From: a virus
DNA length: 16,164 bases
UHGV virus genome: UHGV-0142489
Reading direction: 5' to 3' (one strand)
Shown here: positions 1,001-5,790 of the stretch, one piece after another
Layout: the number at the start of each line of letters is the position of its first letter
How positions within the stretch are numbered: position 1 is the first letter of the stretch
Notes under the pieces: model-generated
The model's database searches: none
What the model saw: the letters and a program-made list of their open reading frames with translations, nothing else
Told to the model about the DNA's origin: nothing
Position numbers and translations under genes: made by a program

Positions 1001-1042
1001 CGGCGGCGGCACAGGGATGTGCCTTTAAATAATTCTGTACGA

Positions 1043-1101
1043 TTGCAGACCGGGGGTGAATAGCGTACTATTACCTTAAAGGTAAACCATGTGTTTACAT
1101 G
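1043..1101 (+). promoter_or_regulatory. Candidate sigma70-like promoter with two adjacent palindromes (possible operator) upstream of the 69-aa gene
   Basis: TTGCAG (1043-1048), 17-bp spacer, TACTAT (1066-1071). Perfect 7-bp inverted repeat TTACCTT-a-AAGGTAA (1071-1085) begins at the end of the -10. Second palindrome CATGT-gttt-ACATG (1088-1101) abuts the GAGGAGGAG ribosome-binding site (1101-1109). Confidence 0.3.
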
Positions 1102-1111
1102 AGGAGGAGAT

Positions 1112-1321
1112 ATGGGATTTTGGTTCGCTCGTACAAAAACGAGGGATAATGCACCCAGCCCTCAGGCAAAAAATGCAGAAGTTCCGGCGTCAGCGCAGGT
1201 TAACAAGCGTGGTGGTGTGTATATCTCATCACAGCAAATTTCTGAGCTTCCTGAGGTTAAGGAGATGCGTCGTCTCGCTGCTGCAATCGTTAAACAGGAT
1301 CTTGCCACTGTAAGGAAATAG
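1112..1321 (+). CDS. Small hypothetical protein, 69 aa, soluble
   Basis: ATG at 1112 preceded by an exceptionally strong Shine-Dalgarno GAGGAGGAG (1101-1109). Balanced, hydrophilic composition. TAG stop (1319-1321) overlaps the GTG start of the next gene by 1 nt. A hand-counted 100-nt sample (1141-1240) has 50 G+C, like the phage backbone. Confidence 0.65.
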   Translation: MGFWFARTKTRDNAPSPQAKNAEVPASAQVNKRGGVYISSQQISELPEVKEMRRLAAAIVKQDLATVRK

Positions 1322-2184
1322 TGTTGTTAGCTCTTCTAATTATCCCCATTCTGGTTAGTGGTTATATTATGATAACCGCTAACCAGTATCATTATTTCCG
1401 TTTATACCGACATGAAGGCCAGCTTCTTTATATGAAAGTAGCTGCATTAGGTACATATTGCCTTGTTGCTTCGGTAATAATTGCCGCATTTATAAAATAT
1501 AAATATCCTGATTTTCACCTAGTTCACGATATGGTGGAAACTTTTAATGTAACGTCAAAACCAGAAACAGATAGAATTTACATGTGGCTACTTCTTCTGT
1601 CAGTCACATCAATTTGCTTCTCTTTGTGTTATGTATCTTTTGTTTGGCTAAAAGATCTTCTTTTAGGTTGTTTTTATAAACGTGATATTTATGACAAAAT
1701 ATCAGAGGCAATGAAAGCTAGGGTATTGCGAAAAACGTACTCCCAGGGTTCTTTAGATTTGCTATTGCTTGATGCAATCGAATCAGATCCTAAGAAACCA
1801 ATGTTAATTACTTTATCATCAAATAAAGTATACGTTGGAATAATAAATGGTTCTGGTGAGCCAACGGAAAATCAAGGGCCACACCAACACATATCTTTTG
1901 TTCCTTTAATGTCAGGGTACAGAAACAAAGAAAATTTATCTGTTACATTTACAAACGCTTACCCAGGTGAAATCCAAATTAAGCGCAGTGCTGCGATAAA
2001 AGGGATAAGCAAAAAGAAAGTTCAAGGTCTAGAAATTATGGTATCTATAGACGAAATAAGTCATATATCATGGTTTGACTTTGAAGTATATAAGGCAACA
2101 AATAACAAAGTAGAAACAAAGGGGCATGTTGTTAATGTGACCAAAAATGGTCGCAACATATACTACAGAAGTGGCAGGAAATAA
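1321..2184 (+). CDS. Hypothetical membrane protein, 287 aa: three N-terminal TM helices plus ~175-aa cytoplasmic domain of unknown function
   Basis: GTG start at 1321 with AAGGA (1312-1316) upstream. Hydrophobic segments LLALLIIPILVSGYIMI, VAALGTYCLVASVIIAAFI and MWLLLLSVTSICFSLCYVSFVWL, followed by a basic stretch (KDLLLGCFYKRDIYDK), which by the positive-inside rule places the C-terminal domain in the cytoplasm. AT-rich (38 G+C in 1321-1420, hand count). An alternative start at ATG 1366 would delete the first helix. Confidence 0.7.
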   Translation: MLLALLIIPILVSGYIMITANQYHYFRLYRHEGQLLYMKVAALGTYCLVASVIIAAFIKYKYPDFHLVHDMVETFNVTSKPETDRIYMWLLLLSVTSICFSLCYVSFVWLKDLLLGCFYKRDIYDKISEAMKARVLRKTYSQGSLDLLLLDAIESDPKKPMLITLSSNKVYVGIINGSGEPTENQGPHQHISFVPLMSGYRNKENLSVTFTNAYPGEIQIKRSAAIKGISKKKVQGLEIMVSIDEISHISWFDFEVYKATNNKVETKGHVVNVTKNGRNIYYRSGRK

Positions 2185-2209
2185 ATTTTACGCAGTTTAG
2201 GTGGCTTAT

Positions 2210-2713
2210 ATGGATAATACTATCTTAGGCGCATTGATAGGTGCAGTTATTGCTATAGTTTCCACTTATATAAATGCAAGACAAGGATACAAAAACAGCA
2301 TAAGATTAGAGCGACAAAAAATATTAAGGGATAAACGCGAGCAATTATTTATAAATTGTATACTTGCTGAAAAAGTCATAAATTCAAGCGCAATTACCAT
2401 TCTCAATTTTGTAAAAAATGCCAGATACCACTCTGATAGTAAATTTGACGTATCAAGAGCGAATCCGTTGCAAACGATGGAAATGCTAATAAACATATAC
2501 CTTCCTGAGTATAAAAAAGAATTACAAGAACTCAATAATGCGTATCAAGAATTTCACAAATACTACTCTCAATATACATGTGCACATACCTTCAAAAATA
2601 TGCCTGATAATGAGAAGTCGAAGTTTATTGAGGAGGCTGATTTTTATGCAAAAAAGATATATGGCAAACTTAATGATATTAAGGACAAGATATCATTTAA
2701 CTCAATAGTATAA
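2210..2713 (+). CDS. Hypothetical membrane-anchored protein, 167 aa: single N-terminal TM helix plus helical K/E/N/Y-rich cytoplasmic domain
   Basis: ORF-track frame 2201..2713 begins at a GTG that is part of the AGGTGG Shine-Dalgarno (2199-2204); the in-frame ATG at 2210 sits 5 nt downstream and is the likelier start. TM segment ILGALIGAVIAIVSTYI followed by basic NARQGYKNSIRLERQKILRDKREQ. Very AT-rich (34 G+C in 2221-2320, hand count). Confidence 0.7.
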   Translation: MDNTILGALIGAVIAIVSTYINARQGYKNSIRLERQKILRDKREQLFINCILAEKVINSSAITILNFVKNARYHSDSKFDVSRANPLQTMEMLINIYLPEYKKELQELNNAYQEFHKYYSQYTCAHTFKNMPDNEKSKFIEEADFYAKKIYGKLNDIKDKISFNSIV

Positions 2714-2788: not shown

Positions 2789-2815
2789 TTAAAAACAAGG
2801 CCGCGAAAGCGGCCT
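2789..2815 (-). terminator. Intrinsic terminator closing the minus-strand virion operon
   Basis: Perfect 7-bp GC-rich stem AGGCCGC/GCGGCCT with GAAA tetraloop (plus-strand 2798-2815). On the minus strand the hairpin is followed directly by TGTTTTTAAC. It lies 9 nt downstream of the TGA stop of the 98-aa gene (2824-2826). Confidence 0.65.
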
Positions 2816-3315: not shown

Positions 3316-5790
3316 TTATTGCGGAGTGACATCCTGAGGTCGCCACCAGTATGTCTGATTAAACTCTTTCTTCGAACGTTGCTCCATTTTACGCAAATAG
3401 CCTGGTGAAAAATACTCCTGCATCTGGTTAAAGATCATATGATCGAGAGCCGCCTTTAAGTACCAGAGATTCGCACCTGGCATCAAACCTTTCCCCAGCT
3501 TCACCAGATCACCACCAGTCTGCTCACTCTTCCCTTCCACAGCATTTAACGGTATGCCCTGAGCAATCTTCACTACGTCATCAACCAGACCAGCTACCGG
3601 GCCAAGCATCGACGCCAGCGCGCCGCTTCCGTACCTAGTGTGATCTGACAATAAAAAGTCACCGTAAAGGCCAAGGCCACCACCTTTCAGTAGAGCACCA
3701 AGCCAGAATTTTGCGGCACCTTCTCCTGTCATCTCTCGAGGATTACGACCAGACGCAAGGTCGTTAAGTTGCTGCGACAAAGCGCCAAGAATGGTCGTAC
3801 TGGCAATAAACGTCGCAATATATGCCGCACGCCCACCAGCAGACGGCATACCCATAGCGCGTGACCAGTGACGCATAACAACCGAGATAGGGAACGATTT
3901 AAACAGGAAAACACTTCTCGTTAATTCACCTTTCCATGTTCCACGCTGAATACCAGAACCGGTTATCAGTTGCTCACGTGCTCCCGGTGTAATAATAGCC
4001 ATATCAACTTCTTCAGTTACGGCACCGAGCAGTTTACGCATTGCCTCAAATTTCACTCGTTCAGGCTCACCAAGATGTTTAACTGCTGAATCAGGGATAC
4101 GCATAATGCTTTCCGGTGTCAGCATCGTATTATTACCGTTCCCCCAGTCCTCCTGTTGCGCCAGCTTCCATACGTTCCAGTCTGTGTCAGTAATCCCTTT
4201 GCTTTTCAGGATACGAAAATCAGAGTCATCGAGGCTACGAAGGTCTGGTGTCCGTGACACTACTTCTCCCAGGCTTCCCATCATGGTTACGCCATAGGCG
4301 CGCTTGTGCGCATCTGACCATGCTGTAAGCCCACTGGCACGCATTACGGCCGTTGCCGCCCAACGAGACACTGACGGCCCCATATTATCCATCGCCCAGC
4401 GGTTAACGCTGCCAAGTAGAGATTCCATCGCCAGACCAGCGCGGCGCGCCCGCGCAAGTTCTGTACGGTTCGTTGGGTCCATAGCTTCAAGCTGGTTGCG
4501 GAATAACTGGTTCATTGGAAGGTTGGTAACCTTCGCAGACAGATACATGGTTCCAAGATCAGAGAACGATGACAGCAACGCGGATCCGAGTCTGCTGGCA
4601 ACCAGCCAGTTGCGGATATTGTCAGACCATCGCGCGATGTGCGGATTCGCTACAGGCTGTGTCTTTCCAGAAATAAAGTTGTACAGATTCTCTGTGTTGT
4701 TCGCCAGCCGCTCGACTTTACCGGTTTTACTCGGGTTAGCTGTTGCCGTTTCTGCCTTAACCTGATCAAGAAGAGAGCGGAAAACATGATCGGGGTTTGG
4801 GCCATATGTTTCCACCAGCGCAATATCTTTACTGATACCTTCCAGGTGACCGACCATGATTTCCCATAGAGAGCGATCGCCATAAAGTTGCTGATATTGC
4901 AGATAGGAATCTGCATCTTTGAAATGTATCTGTCGTGATGCATTACCACGGTTAGCACGCACGCCGGAAATTCGCATTCCGGTATCAGTAAGCTTATTCA
5001 GCCCACCAGTAGCGATCGTGTTATAAGCCTCTCCAAGAAATGCAGACAACTCGGCATCGTTCATCAGTTGCCCATCGGCTCGGGTATAATATTTGCGATC
5101 CAGCTTACCTATAACATCGCTAACCCATTTATCTTTTGATACCGCCCCAACCTTTTCCATAGAATGATGTTGAGGGATCCCCCAGTTTTCGAGATAGCCA
5201 ATGTCCCCACCAGCATCATTAAACCGGCGGCGCAGTAGATCTGTCACTTCTCTCCACGCCTTAGCACCTTTTCTTGCTTTAGCATTGCCAGTATTTTGCC
5301 CTCGCATTTCATATACCAGGTCACGCACGCCCGCTTCATCTTCAAACAGACTAAAAAAGCGAGGATCAACTGCTTCGAATGCCTCCTGCAATCGACTCAA
5401 TGCATAATCACGGGTGGCTTTTGTTCTGGATTCAACAGAGAGGAAATTCGATTTACCGTCTGCATTAAAAGCAATAGTACGGTTAAGAGCGCCAAGTTTC
5501 CCATCAGCCCCTTGATAGCTATTGATAAATTTATCCAATCTCTGACGTGCGGCTATAGTGAGGGCCACACGACGTTTCTTTAATGCCGCTTCTCGCTGTA
5601 ATTCTTCAGATGCCAATTGTGCTGCTCGATATAGCCGCTCTGATTCGGAAAGTTGTCGCCACGAGATCGGGTCATCACGAGCAATGGAGCGCATATTTCG
5701 ATAAATGCGGTCTTCAATGTTCTGTATTTCTCGCGCCGTTAAAGTGCGCTGCGCCGCCTGCTGGACCGCTTGTATACATTCCTGTCTCAT
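3316..5790 (-). CDS. Large internal virion / ejection protein, 824 aa
   Basis: ATG at 5790, 5 nt after the stop of the upstream gene. Long, largely helical-looking protein with hydrophobic stretches near the C-terminus (AAYIATFIASTTILGAL, GAAKFWLGALLKGGGLGLYGDFLL). Its position after the tail tubular genes matches the internal core/ejection proteins of T7-type podoviruses. No tail-fibre-like repeats. Confidence 0.75.
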   Translation of the reverse strand: MRQECIQAVQQAAQRTLTAREIQNIEDRIYRNMRSIARDDPISWRQLSESERLYRAAQLASEELQREAALKKRRVALTIAARQRLDKFINSYQGADGKLGALNRTIAFNADGKSNFLSVESRTKATRDYALSRLQEAFEAVDPRFFSLFEDEAGVRDLVYEMRGQNTGNAKARKGAKAWREVTDLLRRRFNDAGGDIGYLENWGIPQHHSMEKVGAVSKDKWVSDVIGKLDRKYYTRADGQLMNDAELSAFLGEAYNTIATGGLNKLTDTGMRISGVRANRGNASRQIHFKDADSYLQYQQLYGDRSLWEIMVGHLEGISKDIALVETYGPNPDHVFRSLLDQVKAETATANPSKTGKVERLANNTENLYNFISGKTQPVANPHIARWSDNIRNWLVASRLGSALLSSFSDLGTMYLSAKVTNLPMNQLFRNQLEAMDPTNRTELARARRAGLAMESLLGSVNRWAMDNMGPSVSRWAATAVMRASGLTAWSDAHKRAYGVTMMGSLGEVVSRTPDLRSLDDSDFRILKSKGITDTDWNVWKLAQQEDWGNGNNTMLTPESIMRIPDSAVKHLGEPERVKFEAMRKLLGAVTEEVDMAIITPGAREQLITGSGIQRGTWKGELTRSVFLFKSFPISVVMRHWSRAMGMPSAGGRAAYIATFIASTTILGALSQQLNDLASGRNPREMTGEGAAKFWLGALLKGGGLGLYGDFLLSDHTRYGSGALASMLGPVAGLVDDVVKIAQGIPLNAVEGKSEQTGGDLVKLGKGLMPGANLWYLKAALDHMIFNQMQEYFSPGYLRKMEQRSKKEFNQTYWWRPQDVTPQ

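Follow-up and report, generated by a model that had tools for sequence, protein, structure and literature searches.

In the Rep/Ant switch of the phages epsilon15 and SPC32H, the immunity repressor Rep is inactivated by an anti-repressor, as Kim and Ryu reportedly described in 2013, in contrast to the RecA-stimulated autocleavage of lambda. A preprint describes SPC32H Rep as a tetramer on palindromic DNA that is dismantled by tetrameric Ant (bioRxiv 10.1101/2021.09.07.459249), and a further article links the fold of its tetramerisation domain to DNA looping (PMC9986798). In the RefSeq record of epsilon15, seven copies of the sequence ATTACC-N5-GGTAAT are annotated as 'protein_bind, repressor, lysogeny'. 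Overexpression of the repressor of phage ZX5, which has the same sequence as that of phiV10 and phiv142-3, lowered endolysin and holin transcripts by more than 99.9%; the same paper, in which no operators were mapped, reports that lysis is promoted by the Bro-N protein (PMC9782041). Here we analyzed a stretch of 16,164 nucleotides from the UHGV virus genome UHGV-0142489 (hereafter, the window), which represents an epsilon15/phiV10-like podophage (Uetakevirus) of Escherichia coli. Specifically, we examined a perfect palindrome, TTACCTT-a-AAGGTAA, that is located at 1071-1085 between a gene for a Bro-N::Ant fusion protein and an operon of three accessory, or cargo, genes. Comparison with related phages makes it likely that this palindrome is an operator of the phage's own SPC32H/epsilon15-type Rep immunity repressor and that it gates the accessory operon.

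The Rep operators of epsilon15 and SPC32H (PDB 5D50/5D4Z) have half-sites and spacing (ATTACC-N5-GGTAAT) identical to those of the palindrome and a similar number of copies per genome. Their positions are syntenic with those in the E. coli relatives of the window (before terS, before the head genes and before ant, in the spacer between rep and cro, and as pairs 62 bp apart at early promoters), and their Rep and Ant proteins are homologous to the proteins of these relatives. They differ in that epsilon15 and SPC32H encode neither the Bro-N gene nor a cargo module after ant and have no counterpart of the cargo operator and promoter. What was already known, from epsilon15 and SPC32H and by analogy from phage P1, is the Rep operator (annotated or predicted) and the regulatory principle. 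What is new is the place of this probable Rep operator, which follows a Bro-N::Ant gene and precedes an accessory cassette of variable content.

The preliminary description of this stretch had proposed that a dimeric repressor at the palindrome, which starts at the end of the -10 hexamer, would block initiation, and that further copies should be sought across the phage genome. The window contains two exact copies of TTACC-N5-GGTAA, the second at 33-47, where 0.013 would be expected, and about ten copies per genome were recovered in relatives. Specifically, exact copies numbered 10 in phiv142-3, 8 in phiV10, 11 in epsilon15, 10 in TL-2011b, 10 in SPC32H, 9 in Enterobacter phage Tyrion, and 10 in a guaA-integrated E. 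coli prophage that is 99.8% identical to positions 960-2720 of the window, versus roughly 0.02-0.03 copies per genome in dinucleotide shuffles. At a gap of 5 bp, TTACC was the sole 5-mer enriched as an inverted repeat. Chance is excluded as an explanation for the sequence of the palindrome. Significance by shape alone was also considered and was rejected, with palindromes of 7-bp arms and gaps of 0-3 occurring seven times in the window versus 4.4 +/- 2.4 expected. None of the E. coli records that were inspected carries an annotation for the operator at 1071-1085, and a text search of the literature for the motif returned nothing relevant. Collectively, the comparative evidence strongly supports a dimer-type repressor site that overlaps the -10/+1 region of a promoter and points specifically to an operator of the SPC32H Rep type.

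A logo of 46 unique sites reads (A)TTACC-t-n-W-n-a-GGTAA(T), in which the half-sites are fixed by the search pattern itself and the central 5 bp vary freely save for a centre that is always A or T. A variable centre between fixed half-sites fits recognition by a dimeric protein better than it fits an RNA stem. The window copy combines the half-sites TTACC and GGTAA at the exact 5-bp spacing with the secondary consensus of the Uetakevirus Rep operator (a central A/T, T6, A10 and A/T flanks); it has T6, A8, A10 and a left-flanking A, while its right flank is A and not the commoner T. Its perfect 7-bp arms would simply be those of a near-consensus operator. Like the other copies of this recurrent, intergenic and promoter-associated element, the window site is intergenic and adjoins a hexamer resembling a -10 element.

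The placement of the copies is equally regular. Inspection of the annotations of phiv142-3 and phiV10 indicated that all copies lie outside genes, bar one in phiV10 that falls in the probably over-extended start of terS. Copies cluster in the spacer between the divergent repressor and cro-like genes, and further copies precede terS, the head genes, ant, the Bro-N gene, and the cargo. In seven of seven genomes (phiv142-3, phiV10, epsilon15, TL-2011b, SPC32H, Tyrion, and prophage L016), two early promoters are each flanked by a pair of operators whose starts are exactly 62 bp apart, a spacing that suggests that a single Rep tetramer may bridge both sites. The arrangement seen at the cargo, in which the -10 hexamer ends on the first base of the operator, recurs at the early-left promoter (TTGACA-17-AATTAT/TACC, with the slash marking the end of the hexamer) and at the Bro promoter (TTGCAA-17-TATATT/TACC or TTGAAA-18-TATTAT/TACC). 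Among the 46 unique operators, 15 have TAnnnT ending on operator T1 when 4.4 would be expected (P ~2e-5), and the looser pattern nAnnnT ends on operator base 1 in 36.

The strongest evidence of operator function, as judged from comparison of sequences, is that the half-sites persist as the sequences on either side are exchanged. Of 78 IMG/VR loci in which the Bro gene has the same end, 55 keep the exact TTACC-N5-GGTAA, 16 have a single-mismatch version, TTACC-N5-GGTGA, before another cargo, and the remaining 7 are without any cargo, as in phiV10. The promoters of these loci fall into five classes, which are found in combination with at least ten classes of cargo start. A sixth promoter version (TTGCAT-17-TACGAT/TACC) precedes the same cargo gene in loci L031 and L032 and in a Symbiopectobacterium genome, and most of the six upstream versions share the geometry of the -10 hexamer and operator. 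The preliminary description had made its proposal depend on conservation in relatives that keep the downstream gene, and every relative in which this gene is at least 78% identical indeed retains the half-sites. In phage records, similarity to the window ends at ~1085-1087, which is the end of the operator. The position of this break directly 3' of the operator indicates that promoter and operator belong to the phage backbone rather than to the cassette.

In other phages the same slot contains different genes, namely a YafO-family toxin with a small upstream gene in TL-2011b (L001/L015, 32573-33272) and a DUF2335 protein in an E. coli 4/4 prophage (L011, 2585-3100). These patterns suggest that the operator marks a fixed expression slot, with the promoter exchanged on its 5' side and the cargo on its 3' side. 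It is conceivable, and in our judgment distinctly doubtful, that the operator (15-17 bp) is itself the joint for swapping cassettes and promoters, either via short homology used by the phage RecE/RecT or via stimulation by bound Rep. It would then be an integron-like, repressor-gated slot that captures diverse cargo (for example, modules of YafO-type toxins, DUF2335 proteins, or membrane proteins) and expresses it only in infection or induction.

A more distant lineage comprises three IMG/VR contigs (L116-L118; 2826149675_000003, 2826163176_000001, and 2563367181_000002), in which Ant is 35% and the product of cargo gene 2 is 54% identical. Homologs of cargo genes 1 and 2 directly follow ant in these contigs, with no Bro gene. 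A different palindrome, T(T)AACC-N5-GGTT(A)A, occurs between one and three times in each 13-15 kb sequence and is also found before the cargo, where the window has its operator. TTACC-N5-GGTAA is absent from these 13-15 kb contigs, which do not include the rep gene. This palindrome may represent a second immunity specificity, and the lineage lends partial support to covariation of repressor and operator.

The repressor common to the E. coli Uetakeviruses matches SPC32H Rep (5D50_A, E = 4e-42), a 194-aa Rep homolog is encoded by phiv142-3 and by the OZ039848 prophage, both of which share the cargo locus, and the gene immediately to the left of the window in close relatives encodes an 85-aa Ant (5D50_E, E = 1.4e-46). 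We infer that Rep binds the operator copy at 1071-1085 and represses transcription of the accessory operon. In the proposed mechanism, Rep would be a non-cleavable, tetrameric helix-turn-helix protein of the SPC32H/epsilon15 Rep family. The operator begins on the final base of the -10 hexamer of a weak, putative sigma70-type promoter and reaches about +8 relative to a transcription start predicted at 1077-1080, and bound Rep would consequently block formation of the open complex. An operator for the immunity repressor implies that the accessory genes are probably off in the prophage; the three-gene operon (1112-2713) would be silent while Rep is active in the lysogen and would be transcribed early upon infection of a naive cell, before Rep accumulates. 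DNA damage would lead to removal of LexA, production of Ant, and disassembly of Rep tetramers, whereupon all Rep-gated promoters would fire, including those of Bro-N::Ant (as a feed-forward step) and of the cargo operon. The Bro-N::Ant fusion may also dismantle Rep. The cargo operator would be one of about ten identical operators that make up a dispersed regulon, each at a promoter of its own, among which the copy at 33-47 would control an operon of a c4-like RNA and Bro-N::Ant.

Perfect LexA boxes were found beside the Rep operator at ant (Table 1), which suggests that ant is under dual control by Rep and LexA and that the Bro and cargo promoters, with a Rep operator only, are not. LexA control of the cargo or Bro promoters was considered and rejected, given that perfect boxes were present only at the ant promoters (phiv142-3 and epsilon15). 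Positions 1-1300 of the window contain no LexA box (CTGT-N8-ACAG) except for a match with one mismatch at 191.

Several observations count against the assignment to Rep and against a dedicated promoter for the cargo. The 16-kb window does not include the immunity region, so no rep gene is inside it, and the whole-window match in complete E. coli genomes does not exceed ~91-93% identity (best match, 96% coverage and 91% identity). The N-terminal helix '(A/Q)NLVNRW' occurs with the same operator in epsilon15, SPC32H, Tyrion, and the E. coli phages; because all examined Uetakevirus Reps share both, there is no covariation of repressor and operator to compare within the genus. Cro-like or other phage regulators may share the operator. 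The putative promoter TTGCAG-17-TACTAT agrees with the sigma70 consensus (TTGACA and TATAAT with a spacer of 16-18 bp) at 7 of 12 positions and was unreported by a consensus promoter scan with a threshold of at least 9 of 12. In one promoter class, a deletion in the spacer leaves TTGCAG only 10 nt from TACTAT, indicating that TTGCAG is not the -35 hexamer everywhere; in the loci with the shorter spacer, TGTACA at 18-nt spacing fits as the -35 hexamer instead. The hairpin that follows the Bro gene is a poor terminator, and the cargo transcript could come from read-through that originates at the Rep-controlled promoter upstream. The region encompassing it (1001-1042; 42 nt, including the hairpin at 1008-1023) folds at -10.2 kcal/mol, and the hairpin is without a proper U-tract and was not among the reports of the terminator scan.

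The last of these points underlies the alternative that the palindrome is a genuine Rep operator with no independent promoter at 1043-1071. The cargo would then be expressed by read-through from the strong Rep-controlled promoter at 4-33 through Bro-N::Ant, and the operator would be an auxiliary site, as a roadblock or as the anchor of a loop in which tetrameric Rep bridges to the Bro and ant operators. The weak core promoter and the poor hairpin fit this alternative, as do the presence of three operators within ~1.4 kb of the ant-bro-cargo region and the tetrameric state of SPC32H Rep with its looping-associated fold (PMC9986798; bioRxiv 10.1101/2021.09.07.459249). However, most of the unrelated upstream versions (of the six, all except class 3) keep nAnnnT/TAnnAT ending on operator base 1 together with a TTG-type hexamer 16-18 nt upstream, which is hard to explain without promoter function, and the palindrome is at the same place in L032, L036, and the distant L116 lineage, where this Bro gene is not upstream of the cargo. 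We regard this alternative as unlikely. A further alternative is that the motif is bound mainly by another phage protein, such as the Cro-like protein encoded divergently from rep or a different early regulator, and times expression rather than imposing silence in the lysogen. Cro-type proteins usually share the operators of the repressor, and a simple immunity operator would not usually be found, as this motif is, before the terminase and head genes as well. Yet the curators of the epsilon15 record ascribe the sites to the repressor, the drop in endolysin and holin transcripts upon repressor overexpression (PMC9782041) fits a dispersed Rep regulon, and a tetrameric repressor is in keeping with the sites around rep, which are in tandem and in pairs 62 bp apart. 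This alternative is considered quite improbable.

Action at the level of RNA, in which a hairpin formed by the second palindrome (CATGT-gttt-ACATG), or by the first in a read-through transcript, controls translation of cargo gene 1 or stability of the mRNA, is in our view highly improbable. The literal motifs of the preliminary description (TTGCAG, a 17-nt spacer, TACTAT, both palindromes, and the ribosome-binding site) are all present where it had placed them, and the second palindrome adjoins the Shine-Dalgarno sequence. The conservation of the second palindrome is nevertheless poor: 72.5% of its cells pair, it is intact in only four of eight leader versions, and in relatives that keep the 69-aa gene its left arm has decayed to CATGG (L022, L024) or CAAGC (L031) with no compensating change, while in L032 and L036 the left arm is ACAAT and the right arm is altered too. 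Its folding energy is marginal (-3.7 kcal/mol, with a z-score of -0.8 for the leader), hairpins of similar size (5-bp arms, 3-8 nt loops) number 156 in the window, or ~0.34 per 35 nt by chance, and no Rfam family matches positions 1000-1120, even at E <= 1. A conserved regulatory RNA hairpin was rejected on these grounds, and the second palindrome is probably a chance feature. As for the first palindrome, its left arm is upstream of the predicted transcription start, and at more than 60 sites, in either orientation, a variable loop separates constant arms, both of which count against an RNA element. The suggestion that the accessory genes are under specific control is supported, on comparative evidence, in its repressor part and is not supported in its RNA part.

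A different stem is better conserved in the leader. The minimum free energy structure of the predicted leader is a GUAAAC-N5-GUUUAC stem (1082-1098; -4.0 kcal/mol) that overlaps the right edge of the operator. All of its cells pair in eight of eight leader versions, including one before a different first gene (cargo class 6), a point that favors some action at the RNA level. With a single change, from U-A to U-G, the stem hardly varies and therefore provides no covariation. It is a candidate RNA element. GTAAAC-N5-GTTTAC was found nowhere else in the examined genomes, and its interpretation as a second dispersed protein site was rejected for this reason. A purine-rich, GGAGG-type Shine-Dalgarno run is likewise present in all eight leader versions.

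Table 1. Coordinates of features at the cargo locus and of sites in related phages. Positions are those of the window unless a phage is named; a point in the strand column denotes a feature given without a strand.
Feature	Position	Strand	Remark
Candidate -35 hexamer TTGCAG	1043-1048	+	direct read; 3/6 consensus positions; weak
Candidate -10 hexamer TACTAT	1066-1071	+	last T is first T of operator
Operator (palindrome 1) TTACCTTAAAGGTAA, TTACCTT-a-AAGGTAA	1071-1085	.	near-consensus; would cover ~-7 to +8 of promoter
Leader stem GTAAAC-N5-GTTTAC	1082-1098	+	overlaps right edge of operator; candidate 5'-proximal mRNA hairpin
Palindrome 2 CATGT-gttt-ACATG	1088-1101	+	direct read
Shine-Dalgarno region GAGGAGGAG of first cargo gene	1101-1109	+	direct read; ATG at 1112
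Hairpin GGCACA-ggga-TGTGCC, then TTTAAATAATT	1008-1023	+	just 3' of Bro-N stop codon; weak, terminator-like; conserved in relatives
Second operator copy in window TTACCAAAATGGTAA	33-47	.	starts on last base of -10 hexamer of best promoter match in window, TTGAAA-18-TATTAT, 4-33
Cargo gene 1	1112-1321	+	69 aa; phrog_5739; WP_000508164.1 in E. coli prophages
Cargo gene 2	1321-2184	+	287 aa; phrog_3630; hydrophobic N-terminal segments
Cargo gene 3	2201-2713	+	170 aa; phrog_36918; one N-terminal hydrophobic segment
GC-rich hairpin AGGCCGCGAAAGCGGCCT	2798-2815	.	between convergent cargo operon and structural genes; phiV10 equivalent annotated as terminator
62-bp operator pairs, phiv142-3 (L012)	29902/29964 and 33006/33068		
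Perfect LexA box CTGTATAAATATACAG, phiv142-3 (L012)	4812-4827		between Rep operator and ant start codon
Perfect LexA box CTGTATAAACATACAG, epsilon15 (L014)	19841-19856		between Rep operator and ant start codon

The gene upstream of the cargo extends on the + strand from 161 or 314 to 1000, with the form from 314 to 1000 encoding 228 aa. Residues 147-223 of this form (the C-terminal 77) match SPC32H Ant (5D50_E, E = 1e-13), and the Bro-N::Ant fusion is probably a second anti-repressor directed at Rep. Three RNA elements were detected with Rfam on the + strand of the same region: a P1-type C4 antisense RNA (RF01695; 179-265; 79.5 bits versus a gathering threshold of 45), an isrK-like element (RF01394; 84-160; 72.2 bits versus 50), and a c4 a1/b1 target (RF03163; 71-123; 41.7 bits, just under the threshold of 46.7). 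Their location between the promoter and operator at 4-47 and Bro-N suggests an anti-repressor operon with an immI-like antisense layer in Uetakevirus. A terminator-like hairpin (GCCGCATAAGCGGT) followed by T7 is also present at 141-160 on the + strand, coinciding with the 3' end of the isrK-like element. It directly precedes the ATG at 161, the first of the longest Bro open reading frame, which makes the annotated Bro start at 314 more plausible than that at 161.

None of the cargo genes has a match in Pfam, NCBIfam, PADLOC, or PDB; they belong only to PHROGs, whose function is unknown. On the 3' side of cargo gene 3 are the remnant of a gene for a small membrane protein and then the GC-rich hairpin (2798-2815), which faces the convergent virion genes and is the probable end of the cargo operon. 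The segment at 2745-2830 comprises the GGCCGCGAAAGCGGCC hairpin and the terminal part of the gene for the small membrane protein. In some cargo-less loci (L039, L040, L050, and others) it directly follows the Bro hairpin and is inverted relative to the Bro gene. Its orientation in the window and in phiV10 is opposite to that in the L039, L040, and L050 loci, and a palindrome (GTGACATGTCAC) adjoins it. Similarity to the 16-kb window, however limited in some cases, is present in approximately 1,050 of 5,426 complete E. coli genomes.

Beyond epsilon15 and SPC32H, three described arrangements invite comparison. In P1, a single immunity repressor, C1, acts at many scattered promoters, including those of accessory genes, and at an anti-repressor operon, with the operator Op51 located before c4-icd-ant (immI); the C1 operator is an asymmetric 17-mer that is bound by a monomer. 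The window shares with P1 the dispersed operators of a single repressor and a P1-type C4 RNA between the first operator and the anti-repressor gene. It differs in that its operator is symmetric, as for a predicted dimer or tetramer, and in that the repressor proteins are unrelated. The CI/Cro operators of lambdoid phages (OR and OL) are likewise ~17-bp palindromes over the -10 and -35 hexamers of early promoters and cluster between the divergent repressor and cro genes. Lambda, however, restricts its operators to two clusters and relies on antitermination for the genes downstream, whereas here each transcription unit would have an operator of its own. Functionally, the layout resembles the dispersed C1 operators of P1 more closely than the two clusters of lambda.

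The third comparison is with morons, autonomous accessory cassettes that bring a promoter and a terminator of their own and are active in the prophage. The cargo resembles them in being a variable accessory cassette between conserved genes, in having a terminator-like hairpin at its end, and in the exchange of its contents between similar phages. Here, however, the cassette is without its own promoter and plugs in directly 3' of a conserved, repressor-controlled operator. A moron with its own promoter was rejected as a description, with the break in similarity 3' of the operator leaving promoter and operator in the backbone. Unlike the genes of morons, the cargo is predicted to be off, not on, in the lysogen.

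Accessory genes in such hotspots are usually assumed to be lysogenic-conversion 'morons' that are expressed from the prophage, and their placement behind an immunity operator changes this reading. Cargo behind the operator is more likely to have functions in infection or induction, such as host takeover, exclusion, or anti-defence. The motif also provides a simple rule for annotating repressor-controlled transcription units in such prophages, and the operator slot may constitute a ready-made, Rep-gated expression slot for engineering.

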